A program made the position numbers and the translations under genes. DNA of 64,000 bases. Source: Bacilli bacterium (GTDB lineage: Bacteria > Bacillota_I > Bacilli_A > ML615J-28 > CAG-313). The notes beneath the pieces were generated by a model, which saw only the letters and a program-made list of their open reading frames with translations, searched no databases and had not been told where the DNA came from. This document shows, one piece after another, positions 13,188 through 63,650 of this stretch (position 1 is its first letter; the number at the start of each line of letters is the position of its first letter). The DNA lies in the NCBI GenBank assembly GCA_017501465.1, contig JAFVWY010000018.1, positions 77,829-141,828 on the forward strand. Direction: 5' to 3'.

Positions 13188-13205
13188 TTGAAAAGGAGAA
13201 AAAAT

Positions 13206-16043: not shown

Positions 16044-16073
16044 TCTAACATTTAAGAAATGGAGGGCAGAATT

Positions 16074-19000
16074 ATGTTTAAAAAATTTAAATTTATAACA
16101 GTTATTATAATTACTATTGCCCTTACACTTATGGGTTGTGAAGGTGGTTCTACCTCACCAACAATTAAGGTTACTGCCTCACAACCTTCCATTAGTATTG
16201 AAGCAAGTGAAGTTGAAACTCATGATTTTAAACAATATTTTACTATCACAGAAGGTAGCCAAAATGTCACAGTTTTAGATACATATTTAGATCTTTCTGC
16301 GTTAACTGAATCAGCTGGATCATATATTGTAACATGTACTTATAAAACAAAAATGGCTTCTATTATAGTAGAGGTTAATACAAGTACAACTGTTAAAATT
16401 ACTACTTTAGTTGATAGTGTTACTGTTAATAATTTAGAAGTTTTAAATCACAATTATAAACAATATTTTAGTATTACAGATGAAGATTTAGAAATAGAAG
16501 TACAAGATTCTTATTTAGATTTATCTAGTTTAAGACTTGCGGAAGGAACATATACAATTCGTTGTACATACAATGGTGTAGTTAAAACACTAGCTGTTAA
16601 TGTTACAGAAGTTAGTTATCAAATCAAATTAGAAAGCAAGGAAATTTCTGTTAAGCAATCAGATGCATTAACTTATGATTATAAGTCATTATTCACTGCG
16701 GTGGTATCTGGAAAGATAATTGAAATTACTGATGATATGATAAAATCTAACATTTCAAATAATGTAGGAACTTATCAATATACAGTATATTTAGGTGAAA
16801 CATCAATGACTCTAACAGTTAATGTTATTAGTGATCATGACGTAGAAATTATTAATTCATACAATTTAATTGAAATTGAAGAATCTAAACTAAATGAATT
16901 TGATTTTACTAAATTATTTAGTGTTTATGTTGATGGCGTTTCAAGAACTGTCACAATTGATATGATTGATAAAACTGGACTAAATAATCCAGTTGATGGA
17001 GTCTGTGAAATTAAAATAACATATACAGAAAATCAAGCAGTTGCTACTGCTTCATGCAATATTAAAATTGTAAAAGATAGTCAAGTTATAGTAACTACTA
17101 AAAATATAGTTACTTATCCAAATGGTGAACATATTGATTTAACAACACTATTTGAGATTAAAAAAGGAAATGAAATAATTCCAGTAACTAACGATTTAAT
17201 TACTGGAACAATTAATTACTCTGAAGTTGGCAATAATGTAATTACATTAACTTATAAAGGAGTTACATATAAGGCCAATGTTGAAGTAAAACAAGGTGTA
17301 ATTATTAATTACACAAAAGATTCTATTGTTAAAGTAGGTCTTGGAACATCAAAATCAAGTTATGCTTTTAATGAAGATTTTAGTGTATTAATTAATGGTG
17401 TTGAATTTAGTGATATTAAAAAATACATTAATGTAGATAATGTTGATTTTACTAAAATAGGTTCATATGAAGCTGTAATTTCTATTCCATATAAAGATAG
17501 TTCTTTAGGAATAAATGAAACAACTTTATTTACAAAGACAATCACTTATGAGGTTGTTGATGTAACATACAACATATATATTTCAAATCAAGTTGTTGAA
17601 CTTCCTACCGGTTCAACATCATATAATGTTTTTGATAACTTAAGTGTTAAAGTTAATGGCATTAATCAAAAGTTAGTCAAGAATGCACAACAAGTATCTG
17701 CGATTGCAACTTACGCATATCAAGTCAATGAAATCGATTTTAACTCAATTGGGTTACAAGAAATTAGTGTGGCAATATTTGTATTTGGACCAGATAAAGA
17801 CCCAGTTTATGCAAACTTTAAAGTAATTATTAAATCAGATATTGATATTAAAATTAATAATGCATATATGTTTGAAGGTTCAACTCTTTATACAAAAGAT
17901 TTATTTACTATTACTGTTAATGGTAACGAAATACCTGTTACTCAAGATATGATTGAAGGTAAAGTTGACACTTTCACACCTGGAGTATACAGTGTTGTTA
18001 TTAATTATCAAGGTATTTTAAAAGAAGCTAAAGTAATCGTTTTAAATAAGAAAATGATTGGTCAATATAAAACAAATTTAATAACTATTGGAACTAGTGA
18101 TTCTACTGATGAAGAAGGATATGAAGATGCTGGTACAAAGCCAAGAGAAATTAAAGACTTATTTATTACTGAAGATGGAAGAATTTCTGTTGATGGTACT
18201 TTAGCAACAATTTTATATGGTATTGATGAAAATACAATGTATATCAAAGTTGGTAGTTATGAATTTACTTTATATTACAACGATGGTATTGTAGTCTTAG
18301 ATCCAGATAACAAAATTAAATTAGGTTTTATTAATGATAAACGTCCACTTGTTTATTTCCATACTGATGTTTGGGAATTAAGTGATAAAGTTACAATTAA
18401 TAGTGCTAATGAACATATTCTAGTTAATCCAATTGTGGCTTACACTATTGATGCATTTAAAATAAAATCATTAATTAGTGGTGACACTAAATGGTATGGT
18501 TTAAATATCAACTTATATGAAAAAGCAAATAGTGATACTAATTATTTAGTAACACATGGATTTATCGAGTTTAGTGATGATTTTGAACAAACTGCAAACA
18601 CTCATTCATCACTAAGAATGAACAATGAAGTTATTGAATTTAATATGCTTGATTCAAATACAGCAAAAGTAGGTAAAGCAACAGATGATTCTGGATATAA
18701 ATTTGCTGGTCATACTTTTGTTGGTAAATATAATGGCCTTGATGCAATTTTAAGTGTTGATATTTATGAAGGCTATTTATTAAAAGTTGGCGATCAAGTA
18801 ATATTAAATGTTTCTGGCGCAAGTGTTAGAAATCAAAAATATGGTGGTGCTGATTACGAAAATAATACAGTATTAATCATTGATGAAGGTAGTTTAACGG
18901 AAGCTCCATATTCATTTAAATTTAGCCTTGATTTAGTAAATAATACATTTACTTATATTGAAAAAGATATCTATTATGGTAGATATGAAAATAGTGAAAT

Positions 19001-19499
19001 GATGTTATTCTTTGATGGTTATGGTAGTGGTTTAGTCAATTTCGATATTAAACAATACGGTTTAACGACATTTGATTACCAAAGAAAAGGTAATGAATTA
19101 GAAATTGTTTATACAAACACTAAACCAACATTTACACATGGGGAATATGCAACATTCTACATGGATTCTTTAAATAATGCATTAACAGCTAAATATTTTA
19201 AAGATGAAGAAATAAGAGGAAGTATATTTGTTAATAATTACTTAACTGATGGTGCAATTATTAACATTTCTACATATACTTTTAAAACATACTCAAATGC
19301 AGTTTTGGGTAGAAAAGCTTTATTTGATTCAATTCAAATAATTCTTCCTGATGGCGAAGTAACAGACAATAATATTAAGATTACAATGATTGATATTAGT
19401 GATATTAATTTTGCAGTTTCAGGGTTCTATCATTTCTCAATTACATGTAGTGTAAATGGAAATGATGTAGTTATGCATTATGCATTACAAATTATCTAA
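16074..19499 (+). CDS. Large surface lipoprotein (about 1141 aa) built of repeated Ig-like beta domains
   Basis: ATG at 16074 is preceded by GGAGGG. Lipobox LMGC|EGG. Recurrent ~95-aa units such as '...DTYLDLSALTESAGSYIVTCTYKTKMASIIVEVN' and '...DSYLDLSSLRLAEGTYTIRCTYNGVVKTLAVNVTE'. Confidence 0.65.
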   Translation: MFKKFKFITVIIITIALTLMGCEGGSTSPTIKVTASQPSISIEASEVETHDFKQYFTITEGSQNVTVLDTYLDLSALTESAGSYIVTCTYKTKMASIIVEVNTSTTVKITTLVDSVTVNNLEVLNHNYKQYFSITDEDLEIEVQDSYLDLSSLRLAEGTYTIRCTYNGVVKTLAVNVTEVSYQIKLESKEISVKQSDALTYDYKSLFTAVVSGKIIEITDDMIKSNISNNVGTYQYTVYLGETSMTLTVNVISDHDVEIINSYNLIEIEESKLNEFDFTKLFSVYVDGVSRTVTIDMIDKTGLNNPVDGVCEIKITYTENQAVATASCNIKIVKDSQVIVTTKNIVTYPNGEHIDLTTLFEIKKGNEIIPVTNDLITGTINYSEVGNNVITLTYKGVTYKANVEVKQGVIINYTKDSIVKVGLGTSKSSYAFNEDFSVLINGVEFSDIKKYINVDNVDFTKIGSYEAVISIPYKDSSLGINETTLFTKTITYEVVDVTYNIYISNQVVELPTGSTSYNVFDNLSVKVNGINQKLVKNAQQVSAIATYAYQVNEIDFNSIGLQEISVAIFVFGPDKDPVYANFKVIIKSDIDIKINNAYMFEGSTLYTKDLFTITVNGNEIPVTQDMIEGKVDTFTPGVYSVVINYQGILKEAKVIVLNKKMIGQYKTNLITIGTSDSTDEEGYEDAGTKPREIKDLFITEDGRISVDGTLATILYGIDENTMYIKVGSYEFTLYYNDGIVVLDPDNKIKLGFINDKRPLVYFHTDVWELSDKVTINSANEHILVNPIVAYTIDAFKIKSLISGDTKWYGLNINLYEKANSDTNYLVTHGFIEFSDDFEQTANTHSSLRMNNEVIEFNMLDSNTAKVGKATDDSGYKFAGHTFVGKYNGLDAILSVDIYEGYLLKVGDQVILNVSGASVRNQKYGGADYENNTVLIIDEGSLTEAPYSFKFSLDLVNNTFTYIEKDIYYGRYENSEMMLFFDGYGSGLVNFDIKQYGLTTFDYQRKGNELEIVYTNTKPTFTHGEYATFYMDSLNNALTAKYFKDEEIRGSIFVNNYLTDGAIINISTYTFKTYSNAVLGRKALFDSIQIILPDGEVTDNNIKITMIDISDINFAVSGFYHFSITCSVNGNDVVMHYALQII

Positions 19500-19528
19500 A
19501 TTTTAAAAAGGGAAATAGGAGAAAAAAG

Positions 19529-22500
19529 ATGAAAAAAGTTAGAATTTTATTAACGTCTGTTTTCGCTTTAGTTTTAGGCCTTTTCCTTGTTGCATGTGAA
19601 GGCGCACCTGTTCATCAACATACATTAGTATTTAATGAAGCAGTTGAAGCAACATGTACTGAAAAAGGTACAATTCAACATTATGAATGTACAAAATGTG
19701 AAAGAATTTACTCTGACATTGAATGCACTAATCAATTAAAACAAAGTGAAATTTATGTAGAAGCATTAGGACATACTTTAAAAGAAGTAGAACATGTTGC
19801 TCCTACTTGTAAAACTGAAGGTAACATTCACTATTATGAATGTGAAACTTGTGGAAATTATTATGAAGATGAAGCAGCTACAATTGTTTTAAGTGCTAAT
19901 GATGTAGTTATTCCATGTTCTGCTCATGAAGGTCTTGTTGAAAGAGAACAAGTTAATCCTGATTGTGAAAATGATGGTGTTATAGCTCATTTCTATTGTG
20001 CTGTTTGTGATAGAACATATAAAGATGCTGAAGGCTTTATAGAAATTAAAGGTGCACAATTAGTTATTCCAGCACTAGGACATGAATTAAAAGAACATGC
20101 TGCAGTTAGTGCAGATTGTGAAAATGCTGGTAACGTTCATTATTATGAATGTGAAACTTGTCATAAATATTATGAAGATGAAGCTGCAACAAAAGCATTA
20201 ACAGCAGAACAATTAGTAGTACCAGCACTTGGTCACAGTGTTGAATATCATGCTGCAATTGCTGCTGATTGTGAAAATGCTGGTAAAGTAGCTTATTACG
20301 AATGTAGTGTTTGTCATAAATATTTTGAAGATGAAGCTGCAACAAAAGCATTAACAGAAGAACAATTAGTAGCACCTGCACTTGGTCACAGTGTTGAATA
20401 TCATGCTGCAATTGCTGCTGATTGTGAAAATGCTGGTAAAGTAGCTTATTACGAATGTAGTGTTTGTCATAAATATTTTGAAGATGAAGCTGCAACAAAA
20501 GTATTAACAGAAGAACAATTAGTAGTTCCTGCACTTGGACATTCTCTAGTTCATCATGCAGAAGTTCCTGCAGTTGTTGGTAATCCTGGTTCTGCTGAAT
20601 ATTATCAATGTTCAGTTTGTGGTAAAGTATACTTAGATCAAGAAGCTACAGTTGAAACTTCATTAGATGAATTAACAAGATATGCTTATTTAATTAGTAA
20701 AAATGATGCTGCTACAAGTGGTTATTATATTGATTATACTGATTCTAAACATACATTTGTTGATGCTGAAAATAATGGTGTTTTCGTATCTAATAATAAA
20801 GGTGTAAATAGTGCTACTGCATATATGCATTTATTCTTTACATCAAGTGGTGTTGTATCATTTGATTATTCAGTTTCATCTGAAAGTGGATGGGATAAGA
20901 TGACTATTTATGCTTCAAACAATGGTGAAGCATATCGTGCTATTGTTAGTGGTATTTCTGGTATTCAATCAGGTAGCCAAACTTTAGTGGTTAATGCAGG
21001 TGATTATATTTACTTCCAATACAGTAAAGATAGTAGTGGAAATAAAAATGATGATATCGCAACTATTTCAAATATCGTATTTGTAACTGCTGATGTATAT
21101 GTTAAATCTGTATTAACATTTAATGCTAATGGTGGTGAAGAAGTTCCACAAATTGAAGCTTATGATGGCGTTGCTTTAACTGCTCCTGAAGCTGTGAAAG
21201 ATGGTTATTTCTTTGATGGTTGGTATACTGATGATACTTTAACTACTCCATTTGATTTTGCTGCTGGTTTACATGGTAATGCTACTGTTTATGCTAAATA
21301 TACAAAAGGTGTTAATGTAAGTTATGCTAATACTCAAGATTCTACAGTTGAATCTGAATTAGTAAGACCAAATTCAGCAGTAACTGTTCCTTCAGTTATT
21401 CCTACATCTTCAACTCAATATTTCAAGGGTTGGTATGTTGATGAAGCATGTACAGAATTATTTGATTTTGAAGCTGGCGTAAGTGTTGATACTGTTGTAT
21501 ATGCTGGTTGGAGAAACCCTGTTGTTTTATCTTTTGAAGCTAATAATGGTTCTACAATTGAAGCTATTTCTACAGATATTAATGTAGCTATTACTATGCC
21601 AAGTGATCCAACTAAAGATGCTCATAAATTTGCTGGTTGGTATGTAGATGAAGCTTGCACAATTGCATTTGCTCCTGAAAATGGTATTACAGAAGATACT
21701 ACAGTTTATGCTAAATGGTTAGCACAAGTAGAAGTAACATTTGTATTTAAGGGTGAAGTTGTTGGTACTCAAAAGGTTGACAATGGATCTGAATATTCAA
21801 TCGTTAATCCTGAAGGATTTGGTGAAATTATTGATGGTTGGTTCACTGATGAACAATTTGCAAATGAATATGTCGATGGTACTGTTTTAGTAGAAGGTAT
21901 CACTTTATATGCTAAACCTCATGCATTTGCTCCAGAGGGTGTATTAGTAAGCTTTGTCAATGGTGATGGTTCATCTAAGACTAAATATCCATGGATTTAT
22001 GATGTGGCAACTAATACTTTCTCATCAAGTAATCAAACTGTTGGAAGTAGTTATTCTACATTAGAAATTACTTTTGCAAAACAATCATTTGTTTCATTTG
22101 ATTACTTAGTTAATAGTGAATCTAATTATGACTTTATTATCGTAACTGTTAATGGAACTCAAGTATTATCTACTAAAGTTTCTGGCTATAATGGAAAAGA
22201 TGTATCTGGTTCATTTAGTGATACATTTGAAGCTGGTGATGTGGTTGTTATTCAATACAAGAAAGATAGCAGTGGTAACCAAGGTACAGATACAGCTACT
22301 ATTTCTAATTTAATAATTAACGATGGTGTTCCTACACTTGATATCGTTTTAGATTACCAAGATGAAGCTGTTGCTGATGTAACTGTTCAAACTGGTATCA
22401 ACACTACTATTAAAGATATTGAAAACTTTGAAAGTTATGCTCCTGCTGATACAGATGCAAGACATTTCGGTGGATGGTATTACGATGCTGAATGTACTCT

Positions 22501-45782: not shown

Positions 45783-45970
45783 GTTGAAAAAATCGCTTGT
45801 ATAATGTTTTAAAACATTACGAAATAGAAAAGGTCTTCAGACCTTTTTTATTTTTGAAAACTTAAATATTTTCAAATCACTTTATATTTTTAAATAATTA
45901 TGTTAAAATAAGTTTGTACTATGGACTATTATCGTCTATTAACAAAATTACTAAAGAAAATGGTGATTGT

Positions 45971-47965
45971 ATGAAGAAAAGCTATAAAATAATGCCTGTA
46001 TTATTGTTATTAATATCAGTATCTTTAGGTGTTATTACATATATTAGTTATGAGAAAAAACATAAAATGTATACATACTTATTAGCAGCATTAATATGTT
46101 CAGTCATCTTATTGCTATCAGAATTAATAAGCCAATATCGCTTACAAAAACATATTAAACGTGGTGATTTCTACGAAAATAGATTAAAACTTTGGAATAC
46201 AATTTCTTATCGTGTTAAAAAATCTGGTGAACATGCCTTTAATGATTTACCAATTGGCATCGTGATTCTTTCTAATAAACATGAAATTATTTGGTCAAAT
46301 GATTGTGCTAAGAAGATTTTTAATAGTCAATTAAATGATATTCCACTTTCTAATATTGCTCCAATTTTAATAGAACATATAGAACTTGAACAAGAAAATT
46401 TCGTTGTAGAAATCTATGGTAATAAATATAATGTAGAGTATGACAAAAAATATAATATTTTATATTTAAGTGATATTACAGAAATTATTAAGATCCAACA
46501 AAAATATGATAATAGAATAACAGCATTAGGTTATATTAACGTCGATAACTTAGAAAACATATTATCCGATTTTGATGTACAAGAACGTGCTGAATTCATG
46601 TATAAAATTGTTAGTGAAATTGCGACATGGGTAGAAACTTTTGGAGCATATGTTCGTGCCTATAGTGATAACTCATATTTATTAGTAATGGATAAACAAC
46701 AATTACAAATGATGATCGATAATAATTTTTCAATCTTAGATTCAATTAAAGACTTGGGCCAAGGTAAGACTTTTAAAATTAGTTTGAGTATTGGTATTGC
46801 TTGTGTTGATGATAATATTGAAGTTTTGTCAAATCTTGCTAAAGAACAATTAGAACATGCTTTAAATAGAGGTGGTGACCAAGCCTCTGTTAAAATTGAT
46901 GATAAAATTAAATTCTTTGGTGCAAAAAATGATACTGCTCAAGCTGTCACTAAAGTTACTATGAGAATGAAAGCAGAAGAACTTCAAGACTTAATGAAAA
47001 ACTCAAGTGAGGTTATGGTTGTAGGTCATAGAGGAACTGATGCGGATGCTTTTGGTGCAACACTTGCTATTTATCGAATGGCAAAAGCATTAGGGAAAAA
47101 AGCATTTATCATCTTAGATAAAAATAGTATTGATTCAACGGTAACTAGAATTTATGAATCTATTCATAAAGATTACGTTGGATTATTAGATTGTATAATT
47201 ACACCACAAATGGCTCTTGCTAGAATGACAAGTGATACTTTATTGATGGTAGTTGACTGTCAAACTGTTTCACAATTATCTGAACCAAAATTAGTTAAGA
47301 AAGCTTCAAAAATTGGGGTTGTAGACCATCATAGAAGAGGCGATGATGCAATTGATAATTTATCATTCTATTTATCATCTACAGCTGCATCTTCTAGCGT
47401 TGAGTTAATTGTTCAATTATATGAATTCTTAGAAACTGAAATTGAATTTGATAAATTAGAAGCAACATGGTTATTATTAGGTATTATCGTTGATACTAAT
47501 AACTTTGTTTATAGATGTTCTGAAAAGACATTTAAAGTTGCATCAATTCTTGCTAAGTATGGTGCAAACATGACAGGTGTTAAAAAATTCTTAAAAGAAG
47601 AAATATCTGATAAAATTGCTCGAAATGAACTTATTAATGAACTTGATCAATTCCAAGGTCATGTAGGAATTGCTAAAGGTAAAGATAGTGTTATCTTTGA
47701 ACGTTCTGCTCTTGCTAAAATTAGTGATGAAATTATTTCGGTTGTTGGAATTGATGTGGGTATCACAGTTGGTAAAATTTCTAACAACACAATTGGTTTA
47801 AGTGCGAGAAGTTTAGGTACTATAAATGTTCAAATATTAATGGAACGTTTTGGTGGTGGTGGTCACTTTAATAACGCGGCTGCACAAGTTCATAGTGATA
47901 ACATTGATGAAGTTGTAAAAACATTAAAACAATATATCGATGAATATATTGAGAAAGAGGAAAAC
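45971..47965 (+). CDS. gdpP: Cyclic-di-AMP phosphodiesterase GdpP (2 TM, PAS, degenerate GGDEF, DHH, DHHA1). It has no stop codon of its own and reads through in frame into rplI.
   Basis: TM helices. DHH motif 'VVGHRGTDADAFGA'. DHHA1 'ERFGGGGHFNNAAAQ'. ATG at 45971 (GGTGA RBS) preferred over the track start at 45914. The frame is continuous to 48412. Confidence 0.8.
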
Positions 47966-48412
47966 ATGAAAGTTATTCTTATTAAAGACGTTAAAGGTCA
48001 TGGTAAAAAAGGTGAAATTATTGACTTTAATTTAGGCTTTGCAAATCACTTAATTAGAAGTGGACAAGCAATTGCTGTTACTGATGAAAACTTAAAACGT
48101 TTAGATGAACAAAAGAAACAAGCAGAAATCGAAGAAGAAAAGAAAGTTCAAGAAATGAAAGAACTTAAGAAAATTATCGAAGAAACTCCTATTAAATTCC
48201 CTGTAAAAGTTGGTAGTGAAGGTCGTTTATTTGGTTCTATTAATACTAAACAAATTGTTGATACTTTCCAAAAAGAAACTGGTAAAGTTTTAAATAAACA
48301 AAATATTAAACTTGACAAGAATATTAATGCTTTAGGTACTTATCAAATTCCAATTGATTTATATAAAGGTATTAAAGCAAACATTACTCTATATGTAGTT
48401 GAAAAGGAGTAA
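47966..48412 (+). CDS. rplI: 50S ribosomal protein L9
   Basis: MKVILIKDVKGHGKKGEIIDFNLGFANHLIRSGQAIAVT... with own RBS GAGAAAGAGG 5 nt upstream. It is in the same frame as gdpP with no intervening stop. Confidence 0.88.
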   Translation: MKVILIKDVKGHGKKGEIIDFNLGFANHLIRSGQAIAVTDENLKRLDEQKKQAEIEEEKKVQEMKELKKIIEETPIKFPVKVGSEGRLFGSINTKQIVDTFQKETGKVLNKQNIKLDKNINALGTYQIPIDLYKGIKANITLYVVEKE

Positions 48413-53216: not shown

Positions 53217-53678
53217 ATGAATAAGAAGTTTCAAATATATATATTTTTAATAACTTTATTAATCGGTTTTACTTTCTTTTTAACAAGTTGTCATGAACAA
53301 AATCAAATTAGAATTAGAATAAAAGCTAGTGATGATTCAAAAGAAGCCCAACTTTTAAAAGAAGAAATAAAAGATGAAGTTATTGAATTATTAAAAGACA
53401 ATAAAAGTTTAGATATTAATCATTTAGTAGATTATTTAAATGTTTCTTTGTCTAAAAAATATCAAGATATTACAGTAGTATATACAAAAGAAGCTTTTCC
53501 TGCCAAATCTATTAATGGTAAAGTAATTCCTAGTGGAACATATCCTACCATCTTAATTAAAATAAAAGATGGACTTGGTAGTAATTGGTGGAGTGTTTTA
53601 TATCCTGAATATTTTAATATTTCTTATGAGTCAACTGATGAAATAGAGTATCGCAGTTATTTTATAGATAAATACTAA
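53217..53678 (+). CDS. Small lipoprotein, unknown function
   Basis: Lipobox LTSC|HEQ. 153 aa. Confidence 0.5.
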   Translation: MNKKFQIYIFLITLLIGFTFFLTSCHEQNQIRIRIKASDDSKEAQLLKEEIKDEVIELLKDNKSLDINHLVDYLNVSLSKKYQDITVVYTKEAFPAKSINGKVIPSGTYPTILIKIKDGLGSNWWSVLYPEYFNISYESTDEIEYRSYFIDKY

Positions 53679-53841: not shown

Positions 53842-56667
53842 ATGGCTAGAATTAATAATCAAATAATAGTAAAAGGTGCAAGAGAAAATAATTTAAAAAA
53901 TGTAGATATTACGCTACCAAAAGATAGTCTAATTGTCATGACAGGGGTAAGTGGTTCTGGGAAGACATCTTTAGCGTTTGATACCATTTATGCTGAAGGT
54001 CAAAGAAAATATGTCGAAAGCTTATCAGCATACGCTAGACAATTTTTAGATAATGTTAATAAACCAGATGTTGATCAAATTGAAGGTTTATCACCTGCTA
54101 TTTCTATTGACCAAAAAACAACTAGTAAAAATCCAAGATCTACTGTAGGTACTGTTACTGAAATCTATGATTATTTAAGATTATTATACGCAAGAATAGG
54201 TCATCCAACATGTCCTGTTCATCATATTGAGATTAACGCTCAAACATATGAAGAAATGGTAGATAAGATTTATACATATGAAGAAAACTCTAAGATAATT
54301 ATTATGGGTATTATTTGTGAGAACCAAAAAGGGACTCACGAAAAGGTCTTTGATATTTTAAGAAAAGATGGTTATTCTAAAGTCTTAATAGATGAAGAAA
54401 TGATTGACTTGGATGAAGATATTAAATTAGATAAAAATAAGAAACATAATATATATGTTATTATTGACCGTTTACGTTTAAATCAAGAAAATAGAAGTAG
54501 AATCTATGAATCAATAGAAACTGCAGCGACACACAGTAACGGTAAATTATATGTAGAAATTAATGATGAAAGATTATTATTTAGTGAACATTATTCATGT
54601 CCACATTGTGATTTTACTGTACCTAAATTAGAACCTGCAATGTTTTCTTTCAACTCTCCTCTTGGGGCTTGTAGTGAATGTAAAGGTCTTGGTATTATTT
54701 CTAGTGTTGATCCTGATTTATTAATAGTTGATGATAACTTAAGTATTGCTGATGGGGCCATTCGTTATTTGAAAAATATTGTTTTTTCTGAAAACATTGA
54801 GTGGCAACAATATAAAAAGTTATGTGATTATTATGGTATTGATTTATTCGTGCCTTATAAGAATTTAACTGATTTACAAAAAGAAGTTTTATTATATGGT
54901 TCTAAAGAACCAATTTCGTATGAAATTCATACCACTGGTGGAATTACCATGAAAAAGAATAAAATCATTGAAGGTTTGATTCCACTAATTGAAAGAAGAT
55001 ATCAAGAAACAACTTCTAGTTTTGCTCGTGAATATTATGGCTCTTACTTAGCAGAAGTAAACTGTCCAGTTTGTAATGGTAAAAGATTATCACCTATGGT
55101 TTTATCGGTTTTAATTAATAATTTAAATATTCATGATTTTACAGAACTTTCTGTTTTACAAGCACTAGATTTTGTTAATAATTTAAAACTTACACCAATG
55201 GAAGAACAAATTGCTAAACTGGTATTAAAAGAAATTAAAGAAAGATTAGAATTCTTAAAAAAAGTTGGTTTAGAATATTTAACTTTATCAAGAAAAGCCG
55301 GTACATTATCAGGTGGTGAGGCTCAACGAATAAGACTTGCTACGCAAATTGGTTCACATTTAACTGATGTTTTATATGTTTTAGATGAACCTTCAATTGG
55401 CTTACACCAAAGGGATAATTCTAGATTAATTGATGCTTTAAAAGTAATGAGAGATTTAGGTAATACTTTGATTGTCGTTGAACATGATGAAGAGATTATG
55501 CATCAAGCTGATTATTTAGTAGACATTGGTCCTGGTGCAGGTGTTCATGGTGGTGAGGTTGTAGCATATGGCAAGCCTGAAGAATTTAAAAACTTTACTA
55601 ATTCCATTACAGCTGATTATTTATTTGGTAGAAAGAAAATTCTAGTACCAAGTAAAAGAAGAAGCGGAAATGGTAAAGTTTTAAAAGTTATTAACGCAAG
55701 AGAAAATAATTTGAAAAATATTAATGTGGAAATTCCACTAAATAAAATTACTTGTGTAACAGGAGTAAGTGGAAGTGGTAAGTCTACTTTAGTTAATGAA
55801 ATTGTCGCAAACGCAATTAGTAAAAAGCTATATAAAAGTAAAGTTCATGTTGGCAAACATGATGCAATCGAAGGTATTGAAAATTTAGATAAAATAATTA
55901 TTATTGACCAATCTCCAATTGGAAGAACGCCAAGAAGTAATCCAGCAACTTATACTGGCGTATTTGATTTAATCAGAGATGTTTTCACAAATGTTATTGA
56001 ATCACAAAAAAGAGGTTATACAAAGGGAAGATTTTCTTTTAATGTTAAAGGTGGTCGATGTGAAACTTGTCAAGGGGATGGGGTAATTAGAATTTCAATG
56101 CACTTTTTACCAGACGTTTATATTCCATGTTCTGCGTGTCATGGTAAAAGGTATAATCGAGAAACGTTAGATATTAAATATCATGATAAGACAATTGCTG
56201 AAGTATTAGATATGACTGTAGAAGATGCGTTAAAATTCTTTGATCATATTCCAAATATTAAAAATAGATTACAAACTTTATATGATGTAGGTCTTGGTTA
56301 TATTAAGCTTGGTCAATCATCAACAACATTATCTGGTGGAGAAGCTCAAAGAGTAAAACTTGCAAGTGAGCTTTATAAGAAAGTTACAGATGGTTCTATT
56401 TATATTTTAGATGAACCAACAACTGGACTTCATACATCAGATATTGCAAAACTTATTGAAGTGTTAAACAGATTAGTAGATGCAGGGGGAACAGTTTTAA
56501 TTATTGAACATAATTTAGATATTATTAAAATATCTGACCATATTATTGATTTAGGTCCAGAAGGCGGTGACGGTGGGGGAACGGTAGTCGCATGTGGCAC
56601 TCCAGAAGAAGTAGCGAATGTTGATGCTTCATATACTGGACAATATTTGAAAAAAGTATTAAAATAA
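53842..56667 (+). CDS. uvrA: Excinuclease ABC subunit A
   Basis: Two ABC ATPase modules (GVSGSGKTSLAFDT..., GVSGSGKSTLVNE...), zinc fingers 'CPHCDF...CSEC' and 'CETCQGDG...CSACHGKRY'. 941 aa. No Cheo/LexA box (GAAC-N4-GTTC) was seen upstream. Confidence 0.95.
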   Translation: MARINNQIIVKGARENNLKNVDITLPKDSLIVMTGVSGSGKTSLAFDTIYAEGQRKYVESLSAYARQFLDNVNKPDVDQIEGLSPAISIDQKTTSKNPRSTVGTVTEIYDYLRLLYARIGHPTCPVHHIEINAQTYEEMVDKIYTYEENSKIIIMGIICENQKGTHEKVFDILRKDGYSKVLIDEEMIDLDEDIKLDKNKKHNIYVIIDRLRLNQENRSRIYESIETAATHSNGKLYVEINDERLLFSEHYSCPHCDFTVPKLEPAMFSFNSPLGACSECKGLGIISSVDPDLLIVDDNLSIADGAIRYLKNIVFSENIEWQQYKKLCDYYGIDLFVPYKNLTDLQKEVLLYGSKEPISYEIHTTGGITMKKNKIIEGLIPLIERRYQETTSSFAREYYGSYLAEVNCPVCNGKRLSPMVLSVLINNLNIHDFTELSVLQALDFVNNLKLTPMEEQIAKLVLKEIKERLEFLKKVGLEYLTLSRKAGTLSGGEAQRIRLATQIGSHLTDVLYVLDEPSIGLHQRDNSRLIDALKVMRDLGNTLIVVEHDEEIMHQADYLVDIGPGAGVHGGEVVAYGKPEEFKNFTNSITADYLFGRKKILVPSKRRSGNGKVLKVINARENNLKNINVEIPLNKITCVTGVSGSGKSTLVNEIVANAISKKLYKSKVHVGKHDAIEGIENLDKIIIIDQSPIGRTPRSNPATYTGVFDLIRDVFTNVIESQKRGYTKGRFSFNVKGGRCETCQGDGVIRISMHFLPDVYIPCSACHGKRYNRETLDIKYHDKTIAEVLDMTVEDALKFFDHIPNIKNRLQTLYDVGLGYIKLGQSSTTLSGGEAQRVKLASELYKKVTDGSIYILDEPTTGLHTSDIAKLIEVLNRLVDAGGTVLIIEHNLDIIKISDHIIDLGPEGGDGGGTVVACGTPEEVANVDASYTGQYLKKVLK

Positions 56668-57783: not shown

Positions 57784-59544
57784 ATGAAGAATTTAACAAA
57801 AAAACAAAAAAGTGATATTTTTGGTATTGCCTTACTAATTGTAGCATTTATAATTTATGCAATTATTAGCATTACATATAAGTACCCATTCGCTGAACAT
57901 ATAACACCTACTGCTTTAAATAAAGTAGCTATTCCAATAAGTGATCGTATTCAAGTTAGATGGTATGCGATCTTTGTTGTGGGTGGTGCTGCAGCATTAT
58001 CGGTATTTGGATATTATAGATATTTAAAACCTTTAAAACTTGATTCTGATAATACCTTAACTGGTGTAACATTTGGTATTTTATTTGGAATCTTGGGCGC
58101 TAGATTATATTATGTATTATTTGAACATACTGGAATTTCATTTGATGAAGGATTCTTTAGAGGTATCTTACAAATTATTAATCCAGCTGATGGCGGTTTA
58201 GCTATTCATGGTGCTTTATATGGTGCTTGTATTTATATTTTCTTTTTTACAAGAAAACGTGGATTAAAATTATTAGAAATAATTGAAATCGTTCTACCTG
58301 TGTTTATGCTTGCACAAGTTGTAGGAAGATGGGGAAATTTCTTTAATCAAGAAGCATATGGCCCATTAGTTGGTGGTTTTACTAATTATCCTTTAACGGA
58401 TGAACAATTAATTAGTCAAAGAGAAACCTTAAGACATTTATTAGTTCCTAACTTTGTTATTGATAATATGTATATTAAAAGTTATGTAAAAGTTGCTGGA
58501 TATTATCATCCTACATTCTTTTATGAAGGAGTAGCAAACCTTTTTGGTGCGGTTGCTTACTTAATTTTGAGAAAGAAGAGCAAGAAAATTTATATTGGTG
58601 ATGGTATAAGTTTTTATCTATTCTGGTATGGATTTGTTAGATTATTTATCGAAATTTTAAGACAAGATCCATTGACATTCCCTTTATTTGGTATGAATAT
58701 AAAGGTTGCAATTTTAACTTCTGTTATCTTTATGATTGTAGGTATTTTACTATTTATCTTAAGAAGAGTATTTAAATTCCATTTGGTTTCATGTCGTGAA
58801 TTTATTTATAATGGTGGTACTTTATGGAAAGAAGGATATGGTCCAAAAGGTAAAATCATTGAAGAAGAAAAAGAAGAAATTAATACAAATAAAGTAATCT
58901 TCTTTGACTGTGATGGAACTCTTTTAGATACTTTCACTTTAATTGAAAAAACAACGATGAGAGTATTTGATGAATTACTTCCGGATTATCAATATACAAT
59001 AGAAGAGATTCATGCTTTCTTTGGCCCTTTATTAAATGAAAGTTTTGCTAAGTACGCTAAAGATGAAGAACAATTAGAACAACTTGTTGAAAGATATCGC
59101 GTTCTTAATAAAGAACTTCATGAAGAATATATTAAATCTTTTGATGGTATTTATGAAATGCTACAAGAATTAAAACAAAAAGGAATTACAACGGTTATTG
59201 TTTCTAATAAAGTAACCTCTGCAATTATTCAAGGTTTACAAATTTGTGGTATTCATGAATTTATTGATGAAGTTGTTGGTGTAGAAAAACTTTCAAAACC
59301 TAAACCAGACCCTGATGGAATTTATGAATTAATGGAAAAATATAATATAGATCGAGGTTTATTTGTTGGTGATACAGAATTTGACATTACAACAGTTAAC
59401 AATGTCAAAACTAAATATCCTAACCTTTTATCAGTCGGTGTTACTTGGTGTAAAACATCACGTGAAAAGTTTAACGAACTAAATGCTGATTATGTAATTG
59501 ATAAACCAAGTGAATTGGTAGAAGTGATTAAAAATTATGAATAG
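57784..59544 (+). CDS. lgt: Prolipoprotein diacylglyceryl transferase (Lgt) fused to a C-terminal HAD-superfamily phosphatase (PpaX/phosphoglycolate-phosphatase-like)
   Basis: Lgt signature 'GRWGNFFNQEAYG' and seven TM helices in residues about 1-330. HAD motifs I 'IFFDCDGTLLDT', II 'VSNKV', K 'KPKPDPDG', IV 'FVGDTEFDITT' in residues about 370-586. This is one continuous ORF of 586 aa. Confidence 0.85.
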   Translation: MKNLTKKQKSDIFGIALLIVAFIIYAIISITYKYPFAEHITPTALNKVAIPISDRIQVRWYAIFVVGGAAALSVFGYYRYLKPLKLDSDNTLTGVTFGILFGILGARLYYVLFEHTGISFDEGFFRGILQIINPADGGLAIHGALYGACIYIFFFTRKRGLKLLEIIEIVLPVFMLAQVVGRWGNFFNQEAYGPLVGGFTNYPLTDEQLISQRETLRHLLVPNFVIDNMYIKSYVKVAGYYHPTFFYEGVANLFGAVAYLILRKKSKKIYIGDGISFYLFWYGFVRLFIEILRQDPLTFPLFGMNIKVAILTSVIFMIVGILLFILRRVFKFHLVSCREFIYNGGTLWKEGYGPKGKIIEEEKEEINTNKVIFFDCDGTLLDTFTLIEKTTMRVFDELLPDYQYTIEEIHAFFGPLLNESFAKYAKDEEQLEQLVERYRVLNKELHEEYIKSFDGIYEMLQELKQKGITTVIVSNKVTSAIIQGLQICGIHEFIDEVVGVEKLSKPKPDPDGIYELMEKYNIDRGLFVGDTEFDITTVNNVKTKYPNLLSVGVTWCKTSREKFNELNADYVIDKPSELVEVIKNYE

Positions 59545-60391
59545 ATATGATTGTATTGTAATTGGCGCGGGTCCTGCTGGAATTAGTGCTTGTATATATC
59601 TACAAAGATCAAAACTTAAGGTTTTGTTAATTGAAAAATCAACTCCAGGTGGCAGAATGTTACAAGCATCTAAGATTGATAATTATGCTGGGCTTAATGA
59701 TTCTGGTATAAATATTGCTGCCAAGATGTTTGAGATGTTAGATCTTACTAAAATTGATTTTGTCATCGAAACTGTAACTAAAGTTACAAAAGAAAAAGAT
59801 ATTAAGGTAGTAACTAACCAAAATGAATATGTTTGTAGTAAATTAATTATTGCAACTGGTTTTGTTAACAAAACACTACCCAATACTAACGAATTAGATT
59901 TTGTTGGTAGAGGTATTAGCTATTGTGCATTATGTGATGCACCACTTGTTAAAAATAAAAAAATACTAGCGTATGCTAATTCTAAAAAATCGCTTGATGA
60001 AATTTTATATTTATCAACACTAGCTGATAAAGTATATTTAATAACAAAGGATAAAACAATTTCTAAAGATAATATTGAAGTATTAAATGATACAACAATT
60101 AAACGTTTTAATGGAACATTTAAATTAAATAGTGTTACAGTTATTAAAGATGATAAAGAAATTGATCTAGAAGTATCGATGGCATTCATATATAATGGAT
60201 ATATACCAGGTACAAATTTTGTTAAAGATTTAAATTTAACTAATAGTTTTGGTTTAATTGAGATTGATGGAAAATACGAAACAAAAGTTAAAAATATATA
60301 TGCAATAGGAGATGTAAATAATAGAAACGTTAAACAAGTAGCCACCGCGGTAGGTGATGGTGCTTATGTTTCAAGTATTATAATTAAATAG
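59537..60391 (+). CDS. trxB: Thioredoxin-reductase-like flavoprotein (TrxB family) with the redox CxxC retained but NADPH-binding motifs degenerate
   Basis: FAD GxGxxG 'VIGAGPAG'. Redox 'CALCD'. C-terminal 'IYAIGDV'. The region aligning to E. coli 'VAVIGGGNTA...HLIHRRD' reads 'ILAYANSKKS...YLITKDK'. 284 aa. Confidence 0.75.
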   Translation: MNRYDCIVIGAGPAGISACIYLQRSKLKVLLIEKSTPGGRMLQASKIDNYAGLNDSGINIAAKMFEMLDLTKIDFVIETVTKVTKEKDIKVVTNQNEYVCSKLIIATGFVNKTLPNTNELDFVGRGISYCALCDAPLVKNKKILAYANSKKSLDEILYLSTLADKVYLITKDKTISKDNIEVLNDTTIKRFNGTFKLNSVTVIKDDKEIDLEVSMAFIYNGYIPGTNFVKDLNLTNSFGLIEIDGKYETKVKNIYAIGDVNNRNVKQVATAVGDGAYVSSIIIK

Positions 60392-60402
60392 GGGGTATTA
60401 AA

Positions 60403-61344
60403 ATGTCATTTGCTACAGAAGTAAAAAAAGAATTATTAGGACTAGACTTAACACCTTGTTGTAAGAAAGCATTAATTGCTGGGATTCTACATGGTATTGG
60501 TGAGGTTGCCATAGTAGATCGAAAATTTAAATTAAAAGTCTCATCATTTATGCCAAGTGTAATAAGATATATTGCACCATTCATTAGAAATGAATATGGC
60601 TTACAAACACAAACAAGTTATTTAGAAAGAACTAATATTAATAAAAAAAGAATCTATTGTTTAGAAATATTAGACGATCCAACAGATCTTTTAGATGAAC
60701 TGCATTTATTACCATTTGATGCAATCGTTTATGATGATGATTTAGTAGATAGTGAATGCTGCAAAAGAGCATATGTCATTGGCTCATTTATTGCGAAAGG
60801 TTCTATTAATGATCCAAGAAAAAGTGATTATCATTTAGAGATATTATTTAGAAAAGCTGAGTCTGTTATTTTAGTAAAAGAGATTTTATTTAATAATGGA
60901 ATAGAAGCTAAAGTAATAAATAAAAATAATCAATATTTACTGTATATTAAAAAATCCGAAACGATTAGTAATTTTTTAGCATATGTAGGAGCCAATTCTG
61001 GCGTCTTACAGTTTGAAGATTTAAGAATTATGCGTGATTTAAATAACGCTGTTAATCGAATGATGAACTGTGATATTTCAAATGGTAAAAAATCTTTAAA
61101 TTGTTGTAATGAACAACTTGAAGCGATTAAGTTTTTAAAAGAACATGAGTTAGATAAAAAATTAACCATTAGACTTCAAGATGCTATGAAACTAAGAGAA
61201 GAGTATCCTGATGCTACTTTATCTGAACTTAGTGATTTTTCTGAAAATATTTTAGGTAAACATTTATCTAAATCTGGTATTAGTCATTGTTTTAAAGAAA
61301 TAATGAATTATTATAAATTAGTATTAAAAAAAGGCAATAATTAA
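60403..61344 (+). CDS. whiA: DNA-binding protein WhiA
   Basis: MSFATEVKKELLGLDLTPCCKKALIAGILHG... LAGLIDG-type N-terminal domain and a C-terminal HTH. 313 aa. It sits downstream of trxB as in Bacillus. Confidence 0.9.
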   Translation: MSFATEVKKELLGLDLTPCCKKALIAGILHGIGEVAIVDRKFKLKVSSFMPSVIRYIAPFIRNEYGLQTQTSYLERTNINKKRIYCLEILDDPTDLLDELHLLPFDAIVYDDDLVDSECCKRAYVIGSFIAKGSINDPRKSDYHLEILFRKAESVILVKEILFNNGIEAKVINKNNQYLLYIKKSETISNFLAYVGANSGVLQFEDLRIMRDLNNAVNRMMNCDISNGKKSLNCCNEQLEAIKFLKEHELDKKLTIRLQDAMKLREEYPDATLSELSDFSENILGKHLSKSGISHCFKEIMNYYKLVLKKGNN

Positions 61345-61358
61345 TATTGCCTTTTTTT
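61329..61358. terminator. Bidirectional rho-independent terminator shared by whiA (+) and the DUF378 gene (-)
   Basis: aaaaaaggcaata-attaa-tattgcctttttttag. The stem overlaps the last whiA codons. An A-run lies upstream and a T-run downstream. Confidence 0.7.
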
Positions 61359-61563
61359 AGTCTATATCTTTCATATCTAATAAACAACTAACTACATATA
61401 CTACCCCTGCAATACCAACTAAAGAAAAAATAATTCTTGATATTACAACAGATAAGTTATCAAAGATAAATGTAACTAGGTTAAAATTAAATAAACCAAC
61501 TAAACCCCAGTTTAATGCACCAATGACAATTAAAGTAATGCATATTTTTTTAACGATATTCAT
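61357..61563 (-). CDS. DUF378-family small membrane protein
   Basis: MNIVKKICITLIVIGALNWGLVGLFNFNLV... with RBS GGAGGT 5 nt upstream of the ATG (complement of 61561-61563). The track ORF is extended to 61614. Confidence 0.7.
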   Translation of the reverse strand: MNIVKKICITLIVIGALNWGLVGLFNFNLVTFIFDNLSVVISRIIFSLVGIAGVVYVVSCLLDMKDID

Positions 61564-62721: not shown

Positions 62722-63162
62722 ATGATTAATAGATTTAAAAAGTTATTTCTTGTAGCGATATTTACTATCTTTTGCTTAACCCTTTCAGCTTGTAAATCAT
62801 ATGAAGATTTAGAACATGTTACACATTCAGAAATTTTTAATATTCAAGAGACTGAATATTATATATATGTGTATCGACCTAATTGCGAGGTTTGTTCAAA
62901 TCTCGAAGAAACTGTTTATAAGTATGCAAAGAAAGCTAAAAGAAGTGACGATCTTCCTAACCTTTATGTTTTGAATAAAGGGGACGGAGTAAATAATGCG
63001 GGAATTTATTGTAGTCAAGAAGACTATAAAGATTTCTTAGGAGCTACTACACCTAGCGAAGTAAAAACAAGTACATCACCATACTTATTTAAGATTAAAA
63101 ACGGTCAAGTCGTTTTAACTATTGATGATGGAAATATAATGAAAGAAAAGCTAACTTTATAG
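62722..63162 (+). CDS. Thioredoxin-fold lipoprotein with a CxxC motif
   Basis: Lipobox LSAC|KSY. 'YVYRPNCEVCSNLE'. Confidence 0.5.
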   Translation: MINRFKKLFLVAIFTIFCLTLSACKSYEDLEHVTHSEIFNIQETEYYIYVYRPNCEVCSNLEETVYKYAKKAKRSDDLPNLYVLNKGDGVNNAGIYCSQEDYKDFLGATTPSEVKTSTSPYLFKIKNGQVVLTIDDGNIMKEKLTL

Positions 63163-63173
63163 AGGAGTATAAC

Positions 63174-63650
63174 ATGAAAAAAAGAGAAAACTTTACAGAA
63201 ATATTATTTAAAAGAGCTTTCGTAATTATCCCATTAATCTTTTTACTAATCATCGCTATTGTTCTTTTTAAACCATTTGATACAGTTAATTTAGAAAAAG
63301 TAAGACATACACAAGTTCAAGACTGTCTAAAAGAAAACTTTAACGCAGCTGGTAAACAAGGTAAGTATTATGTTTTATTCTATACTGAATCTGATCGAGA
63401 TAATGAAATTATTAAAGAAGCAGTTTTGGCGTATTATAATGCTGAAAAGAAATTAAATAGTGAATTAAATAATATCTATTTAGTAAAAGCAAATGAATCT
63501 AATATCACTCAAATTAGAACAATTGATAGTAAAATTGATAGTTTATCAAAACTACCTTATATGATTTTAGTGAGTGATGGATCAGTTAGTACTAAATACG
63601 ACACTAATTCTGAGATTGCTAATGCTTTATATTCTGCATTATTAAAGTAA
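63174..63650 (+). CDS. Membrane-anchored thioredoxin-like-fold protein (no CxxC)
   Basis: N-terminal TM 'FVIIPLIFLLIIAIVLF'. Architecture parallel to the preceding gene ('KYYVLFYTESDRDNEIIKEAV'). Confidence 0.4.
   Translation: MKKRENFTEILFKRAFVIIPLIFLLIIAIVLFKPFDTVNLEKVRHTQVQDCLKENFNAAGKQGKYYVLFYTESDRDNEIIKEAVLAYYNAEKKLNSELNNIYLVKANESNITQIRTIDSKIDSLSKLPYMILVSDGSVSTKYDTNSEIANALYSALLK

Follow-up and report, generated by a model that had tools for sequence, protein, structure and literature searches.

We analyzed a 64-kb stretch of DNA, called the window below, from an uncultured 28% GC "Bacilli bacterium" found in gut metagenomes, and we focused on a trxB-like gene located between lgt and whiA (Table 1). 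The GC content across the window was 24 to 33%, which resembles that of ordinary chromosome. The product of the gene, which begins MNRYDCIVIGAGPAG, was encoded in identical form on 21 contigs from several metagenomes and was identical to the NCBI protein MBR2892088.1, annotated as "FAD-dependent oxidoreductase [Bacilli bacterium]" and derived from a metagenome-assembled genome (MAG). In a Pfam scan, Pyr_redox_2 spanned residues 4 to 275, i.e., the whole protein, and PF00070 was not matched. The best NCBIfam model was TIGR01292 (thioredoxin-disulfide reductase equivalog), with a score of 219.6 bits, below the cutoff of 343.45. As controls, a Streptococcus TrxB scored 386.7 against the same model, the nearest canonical relative (P0051) scored 327.3, and one clostridial flavin thioredoxin reductase that depends on ferredoxin (FFTR) scored 181.2. 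A relative of the same clade with 57% identity (P0017) bears the JGI label "thioredoxin reductase (NADPH)."

Table 1. Features of the trxB-like gene and its surroundings, in window coordinates (NTR, NADPH-thioredoxin reductase; ORF, open reading frame; AF2, AlphaFold2 model)
Feature	Position	Strand	Remarks
uvrA	53842..56667	+	conserved upstream anchor of the syntenic block; ORF, synteny
Lgt fused to a HAD-family (PpaX-like) phosphatase, 586 aa	57784..59544	+	8-nt overlap between its stop and the start of the trxB-like gene
trxB-like gene	59537..60391	+	284 aa, ATG start; low-Mr thioredoxin-reductase fold, NAD(P)H site decayed
FAD-binding GxGxxG, GAGPAG (residues 10-15), intact	59564..59581	+	G10, G12 and G15 invariant in 86 aligned homologues
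PGGR (residues 37-40), equivalent to the NTR-type PGGQ FAD motif	59645..59656	+	alignment; R40 invariant within the clade
Redox-active CALC (C130, C133) followed by DAPL	59924..59947	+	both Cys invariant in all alignments
ANSKKS (residues 147-152) at the GxGxxA (GGGDSA/GGGNTA) columns	59975..59992	+	HMMER, MAFFT, clade column counts
Short loop TKDKTISKDN in place of the HRRxxxR 2'-phosphate stretch and helix	60044..60076	+	alignment gaps, AF2
C-terminal NTR-type FAD motifs GDV (258-260) and TAVGDGA (270-276), intact	60308..60364	+	alignment
whiA	60403..61344	+	11 nt after the trxB-like stop; GGGGG ribosome-binding site ahead
Terminator-like hairpin, end of whiA	61323..61361	+	consensus scan only

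The motif assignments were based on alignments made with HMMER and MAFFT that included solved NTRs and E. coli TrxB; the E. coli sequence served solely to number the columns and to root the trees. The flavin-binding motifs and the redox-active cysteines were all kept. A residue-by-residue check located GAGPAG, CALC, ILAYANSKKS, TKDK, and GDV exactly where a previous sequence-only reading of this DNA had placed them, and the FAD motif, CALC, and GDV align with those of NTRs, as that reading had proposed. The DAPL residues that follow the second cysteine correspond to the loop that bears two Phe residues contacting thioredoxin in NTRs. The protein stops 8 residues past TAVGDGA, and its end (...GDGAYVSSIIIK) shows no extension. 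These features showed that the two-domain, FAD-containing fold of the thioredoxin reductase type and its CxxC motif are retained.

The NADPH site showed the opposite picture. The segment ILAYANSKKS (residues 143 to 152) occupies the second Rossmann motif, in which both glycines and the alanine of GxGxxA were substituted, with A147 and S149 at the Gly positions. Formal alignment with NTRs, E. coli TrxB, and FFTRs restored no GxGxxA at these columns, in agreement with the loss proposed from the sequence alone. In the 2'-phosphate-binding region, TKDK (residues 170 to 173) was placed by MAFFT beneath HRRD, as that reading had it; however, both HMMER and MAFFT opened an 11-residue gap at the site of HRRDQLRAQKI. 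From the strand that precedes HRR to the next conserved strand, there were 11 residues in the window protein; relatives with canonical motifs had a median of 22 and the E. coli protein had 25, and the HRRxxxR stretch has therefore been largely deleted rather than merely substituted. The short length of 284 residues noted before was confirmed. The AF2 model, with a predicted local distance difference test (pLDDT) score of 93.8, kept the second Rossmann beta-alpha-beta unit (strand 142 to 146, helix 150 to 160, and strand 165 to 169), but only a loop, with no helix, was present between strands 165 to 169 and 180 to 183. The residues that bind the pyrophosphate and the 2'-phosphate of NADPH are thus lost. 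With the pyrophosphate turn replaced and the HRRxxxR loop and helix deleted, the protein is predicted to be no longer able to bind NAD(P)H in the canonical manner.

The same architecture recurred in a clade of about 50 sequence clusters (P0001 to P0050), with lengths of 281 to 291 aa and identities of 49 to 98%, all of which had the deletion and the CxxC motif in common. When 1.84 billion representatives at 50% identity were searched exhaustively with HMMER, the whole clade appeared as one cluster (P0045, 439 bits) and the score of the next match dropped to 286 bits, thereby indicating that the clade is a narrow, discrete lineage. Column counts and invariant positions were taken from an alignment of 21 clade members, in which the deletion and CxxC were found in 21/21. 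The 45 invariant columns comprised all FAD motifs, the positions equivalent to R125, C130, C133, and D134, and several residues of the central domain. Glycines at the two Gly positions of the second Rossmann motif were kept in 8 to 10 of the 21 members, and a few had the full GxGxx[A/T]; loss of GxGxxA was confined to the window protein and the members most closely related to it. Because some members still carry Gly, it is the deletion that is the clade-wide feature, and it appears to have been the clade-defining event, with the glycine turn decaying afterwards. The mean pairwise identity within the clade was 0.59 for the FAD domain and 0.52 for the central domain, and the values for a set of canonical NTRs were 0.46 and 0.44, respectively. 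The central domain of the clade has thus not been free to drift. These results showed that the trxB-like gene is under purifying selection. Clade conservation, together with the recurrence on 21 contigs, ruled out a pseudogene and an assembly or sequencing artifact.

Next, we consider the genomic position of the gene. The order uvrA-vanZ-small ORF-lgt(-HAD)-trxB-like-whiA was kept in clade members that are only 56 to 59% identical, and both the lgt-HAD fusion and the 8-nt overlap were conserved at the clade loci, where the start of the trxB-like gene appears to be translationally coupled to the lgt-HAD stop. Related low-GC MAGs assigned to Bacilli, "Tenericutes," or "Mycoplasmatota" showed the order uvrA-lgt-trxB-(one gene)-whiA with a TrxB of canonical length. 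The nearest protein outside the clade, P0051 (GCA_017463365.1; 43% identical), was located in exactly the same block and keeps GGGNSA and HRTDQYR. Since the block is conserved and contains the canonical P0051, the window gene is a vertical descendant of trxB and not a paralogue added at this place. By position, the gene is thus an orthologue of trxB, and the syntenic trxB position upstream of whiA that had been read from the window alone is supported by the loci of the clade, the related MAGs, and P0051. Lgt is a stand-alone protein of 260 to 380 aa in relatives whose TrxB is canonical or of another type, and the HAD fusion accompanies the degenerate-TrxB clade.

Sequence, profile, fold, and tree comparisons all gave the Firmicute NTRs as the closest kin of the window protein. 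With the single window sequence, the best PDB matches were the NTRs of S. pyogenes (5UWY, 163 bits), L. lactis (5MH4), B. cereus (7AAW), and S. aureus (4GCM), and the clostridial FFTRs scored 102 to 113 bits. With the clade profile, the scores were 204 to 228 bits for the Firmicute NTRs, 157 to 163 bits for the clostridial FFTR chains (ranks 12 to 16), 149 bits for the cyanobacterial FFTR, 80 bits for DvTRi, and 78 to 88 bits for DDOR. Foldseek returned the same order, with the Firmicute NTRs first and no clostridial FFTR among the top 50. In neighbor-joining trees (Kimura distances, 300 bootstraps) of the whole protein, the FAD domain, and the central domain, the clade was monophyletic at 100% and its sister was P0051 at 41 to 67%, whereas a grouping of the clade with FFTRs received at most 6% bootstrap support in every partition. 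The FFTR sequences in these trees were rebuilt from HMMER alignment printouts with a chimeric query and are near full length, with a few terminal residues absent. The Firmicute NTRs and the window protein have the same two-domain fold and have GxGxxG, PGGx, CxxC, GD, and TAVGDGA in common, and canonical TrxBs of related genomes occupy the same lgt-trxB-whiA slot. In contrast to these NTRs, the window protein has ANSKKS in place of GxGxxA and lacks the 11 residues of the HRRxxxR loop and helix.

The sequence-only reading had matched this pattern to the clostridial FFTRs, and the match stands for the motif loss and as a functional analogy but fails as a family assignment. The clostridial FFTRs also lack GxGxxA and HRRxxxR, have a deletion in the same segment and a similarly short length (288 to 294 aa), share the CDAPL loop (CATCDAPLYK in FFTR), and, like the window protein, are without the C-terminal aromatic tail. 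In addition, the FFTR structure 6gnc was the second-best PDB match when the central domain alone was compared. However, the FFTRs lack PGGQ and TAxGDGA, and the window protein keeps PGGR and KQVATAVGDGA; where the latter has GDV...TAVGDGA, the FFTR C terminus reads GDC...YQYIKSAGQG (YQYxKxxGxG). FFTR genes frequently form pairs with trxA and occur alongside NTRs in Clostridia (PMC10880999). Unlike these, the window gene lies in the ancestral trxB slot, its sister in that slot has canonical motifs, and trxA was not found nearby. When the lower profile scores, the absence from the Foldseek top 50, and the bootstrap values given above are considered together with the finding that 0 of the 150 nearest representatives were closer to the clostridial FFTR than to NTRs, membership in the clostridial FFTR family is extremely improbable, and the window protein lies outside the FFTR clade. 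Only in the decayed second Rossmann region and in the CDAPL loop does the window protein resemble FFTR, and this likeness looks convergent. Judged from the sequence comparisons, the clostridial FFTR is the best functional analogy and the wrong family.

The other NAD(P)H-independent families were compared in the same way. The cyanobacterial FFTR/DTR (Gloeobacter, 5J60 and 6XTF) is an NTR-like flavoenzyme without NADPH motifs, as is the window protein; it is ferredoxin dependent and is the sole thioredoxin reductase of some organisms (PMC8154056, PMC12796991). Its C-terminal Trp tail (PMC8154056) is absent from the window protein. DvTRi of Desulfovibrio vulgaris (5NII) is a thioredoxin reductase homologue of an anaerobe that resembles the window protein in that it has CxxC and its NAD(P)H motifs have decayed. 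It reduces thioredoxin once it has been artificially reduced, and its donor is unknown (PMC5627308). The TQ/NGK motif that replaces HRRD in the TRi family (PMC5627308) was not present in the window protein, which has TKDK, and positions 171 to 174 were variable within the clade; the scores of 5NII against the window protein and the clade profile were 56 to 80 bits. Motifs and scores ruled out that the window protein is a TRi, a DDOR, or a cyanobacterial FFTR. The window protein thus belongs neither to canonical TrxB nor to any of the named NAD(P)H-independent families. "Non-NTR" TrxBs have been defined by the absence of both NAD(P)H motifs and are regarded as probably FFTRs (PMC10880999). Since the window protein lacks both motifs and keeps CxxC, it is a "non-NTR" under this definition.

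We also examined how widespread motif decay is around the clade. The survey covered the 150 nearest 50%-identity representatives and used a profile without the deleted segment, which favors short, motif-poor matches. CxxC was found in 150/150, GxGxxA and HRR were both kept in 34, and GxGxxA was lost in 54, of which 20 were also shortened. Decay of the NADPH site thus appears to be common among the nearest relatives. Two further short, motif-less lineages were located directly downstream of lgt, one with uvrA and whiA beside it (P0058) and the other with 372 member sequences from gut (P0064). Intermediate states were seen in several syntenic relatives, for example, GGGNSA combined with NRS, or GSEHGA combined with NPKD. 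In syntenic TrxBs of many low-GC gut Bacilli/Tenericutes MAGs (L007 to L017, L029, L060, and others), GGGNSA was kept and HRR was replaced by NRS, which may mean that the cofactor preference has changed or that decay is midway. A scan of a genome collection with the clade profile gave relatives of at most 43% identity among the matches listed. Bacilli have been described as having a single TrxB of the NADPH type, with uncultured lineages unsampled (PMC10880999), and our search of the papers available to us found no description of NADPH-site loss in trxB of Bacilli, Mollicutes or Mollicutes-like lineages, or Erysipelotrichia.

Considered together, the window protein is probably (at a rough probability of 0.6) an NTR-derived, NAD(P)H-independent thioredoxin reductase that is analogous to and convergent with FFTR and for which ferredoxin or flavodoxin would be the likeliest donor. 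Because the NADPH pocket is lost and the flavin site and cysteines are kept, the electrons probably come from another donor. FAD would be reduced by an external one-electron donor; this would be a protein carrier in its reduced form, with ferredoxin or flavodoxin as the most plausible candidates. The disulfide domain would then rotate over the flavin, FADH2 would reduce the C130-C133 disulfide, and the resulting C130/C133 dithiol would reduce thioredoxin. These steps of flavin reduction by a protein donor, domain rotation, and dithiol transfer to thioredoxin would follow the mechanisms established for thioredoxin reductases and FFTRs (PMC12796991, PMC8154056). We also infer that the window protein still reduces thioredoxin and does not use NAD(P)H. 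The enzyme would have originated by decay of the nucleotide site of a Bacilli-type NTR, independently of the clostridial FFTR, which lost the same segment. Among characterized enzymes, such a loss of motifs is accompanied by NAD(P)H independence and ferredoxin dependence in the clostridial and cyanobacterial FFTRs (PMC8154056, PMC12796991, PMC10880999) and by NAD(P)H independence in DvTRi (PMC5627308). Ferredoxin or flavodoxin would be the likeliest donor because, among proteins, ferredoxin alone has been demonstrated as a donor to enzymes of this type, with examples from two unrelated lineages (PMC8154056), and because the host is a gut anaerobe with a radical-SAM enzyme. The radical-SAM gene is located in the window and weakly implies that the cell holds a low-potential carrier. 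A comparison of net charge and isoelectric point (pI) for a basic ferredoxin-docking surface gave no uniform picture, with a pI of 8.7 for the window protein and values from 5.2 to 8.1 for clade members.

Several observations weigh against this interpretation. The thioredoxin-contacting Phe-Phe that follows CxxCD in NTRs is Pro-Leu in the window protein, and the deep nodes of the neighbor-joining trees were weakly supported. Ferredoxin, flavodoxin, and thioredoxin genes were not found in the 64-kb window or at any fetched clade locus (scans of the window and 11 related loci for the thioredoxin motif WCxPC and the ferredoxin motif CxxCxxCxxxCP, and Pfam scans of further window ORFs), so that donor and substrate have no genomic link to the gene. 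Clade members that keep GxGxxA may still bind a dinucleotide of some sort. Because several known NAD(P)H-independent thioredoxin reductases, such as DvTRi, have unknown donors (PMC5627308), ferredoxin is not the sole option. Finally, the MAG Bacilli bacterium VLC_128 (JBKDZI01) holds two TrxB-like genes. One (L063) is the syntenic lgt-trxB-whiA copy with degenerate GYNEET/NPKN; the other (L033) is non-syntenic, has GGGNTA/HRN, and is more similar to clostridial-type sequences. As both occur in one MAG, the genome of the window may likewise hold a second, canonical trxB, and an accessory or repurposed role of the window protein is conceivable.

That role is the core of one alternative, in which a second canonical TrxB is the thioredoxin reductase of the cell and the window copy is left over as a relic or has taken on a new task, for example that of a redox sensor or of a disulfide reductase acting on another substrate. 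The coexistence of a degenerate syntenic copy and a canonical-motif copy in VLC_128 fits it, as do the change of Phe-Phe to Pro-Leu and the failure to find a trx gene nearby. However, the strong clade conservation of CxxC, R125, and all FAD motifs is not that of a decaying pseudogene, the operon position and the coupled start are conserved, the clostridial FFTR with the same Pro-Leu loop reduces thioredoxin (PMC8154056), and Bacilli have a single TrxB according to the survey, which left uncultured lineages unsampled (PMC10880999). We therefore consider a relic or repurposed copy unlikely. It is somewhat more unlikely still that the protein has remained an NAD(P)H-thioredoxin reductase, using a pyridine nucleotide such as NADH through non-canonical binding. 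The second Rossmann beta-alpha-beta unit is structurally retained in the AF2 model, GxGxx[A/T] persists in some clade members, and the intermediate states in many syntenic relatives (GGGNSA, with NRS for HRR) suggest a shift of cofactor preference and not a loss. Against this, the pyrophosphate turn of the window protein has A147 and S149 in place of its two glycines, the entire 2'-phosphate loop and its helix are gone, the conserved acidic residue expected at the end of strand 2 in NADH enzymes is absent, with positions 171 to 178 variable, and NAD(P)H is not used by those characterized enzymes that have undergone a similar loss (PMC5627308, PMC8154056).

An NAD(P)H-independent enzyme could also receive electrons from neither ferredoxin nor flavodoxin but from another small redox protein or cofactor, or by direct docking to an oxidoreductase, which we regard as very unlikely. 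The thioredoxin reductase of T. acidophilum reportedly has no known donor either, and the donor gene missing from the window and the clade loci would fit such a case. As a candidate cofactor, F420 is to our knowledge not expected in gut Bacilli, which counts against it. One archaeal homologue does use F420, and the donor of DvTRi is unknown (PMC5627308); however, the sole protein donor demonstrated, in both of the unrelated lineages, is ferredoxin (PMC8154056).

The remainder of the window provides the context of the gene. The hairpin after whiA is likely the end of a vanZ-x-lgt-trxB-whiA transcription unit. Downstream of whiA, two adjacent small proteins with predicted signal/lipobox sequences are encoded at 62722-63162 and 63174-63650 (both +). 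The former has a CEVC motif and a weak precomputed PedC-like (thioredoxin-fold) match, and the latter is without CxxC; a Pfam scan of both proteins gave nothing. Upstream, spoIIR (53217-53678, +) is located in the window and was also found near trxB at several related MAG loci, and a DUF1540 gene (L001 14144-14494, -) lies just past the window end. The occurrence of both genes in a 28% GC Mollicutes-like MAG hints at a sporulating lineage with a small genome. A single 832-aa ORF at 45914-48412 (+), located just upstream of the dnaB helicase gene, contains the GdpP domains (PAS, GGDEF, DHH, and DHHA1; c-di-AMP phosphodiesterase) and, in frame after them, both domains of ribosomal protein L9; it is an apparent gdpP-rplI fusion. 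At 3347-10846 and 10848-24466 (+), very large ORFs of 2499, 779, 951, 1146, and 1645 aa showed weak Ig-like/Big_3 matches or none and probably encode surface proteins.

The enzyme class to which we assign the window protein is already known and characterized elsewhere, and the window lineage is a separately arisen variant, so the finding brings a modest practical gain. As a rule, thioredoxin reductase is regarded as an NADPH enzyme; here, the ancestral trxB slot holds a conserved enzyme without the NADPH site. That unrelated lineages have lost the same helix suggests a structural route from NTR to an enzyme that depends on a protein donor. If this is the sole reductase, the thiol-redox homeostasis of these anaerobes would depend on low-potential carriers, which would bear on oxygen tolerance, on the metabolic modeling of MAGs, and on automatic annotation. 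More tentatively, and with considerable doubt on our part, the sole thioredoxin reductase of these gut Bacilli may be an NAD(P)H-blind enzyme that wires thiol-redox metabolism to ferredoxin or flavodoxin, with an origin, through deletion of the same 2'-phosphate loop and helix, separate from those in Clostridia and cyanobacteria and with repeated decay of the syntenic trxB in further Bacilli of the gut and Mollicutes-like lineages (P0058, P0064, and L016/L026/L063). If so, NTR-derived non-NADPH reductases would be far more common than the label "clostridial-specific" suggests.

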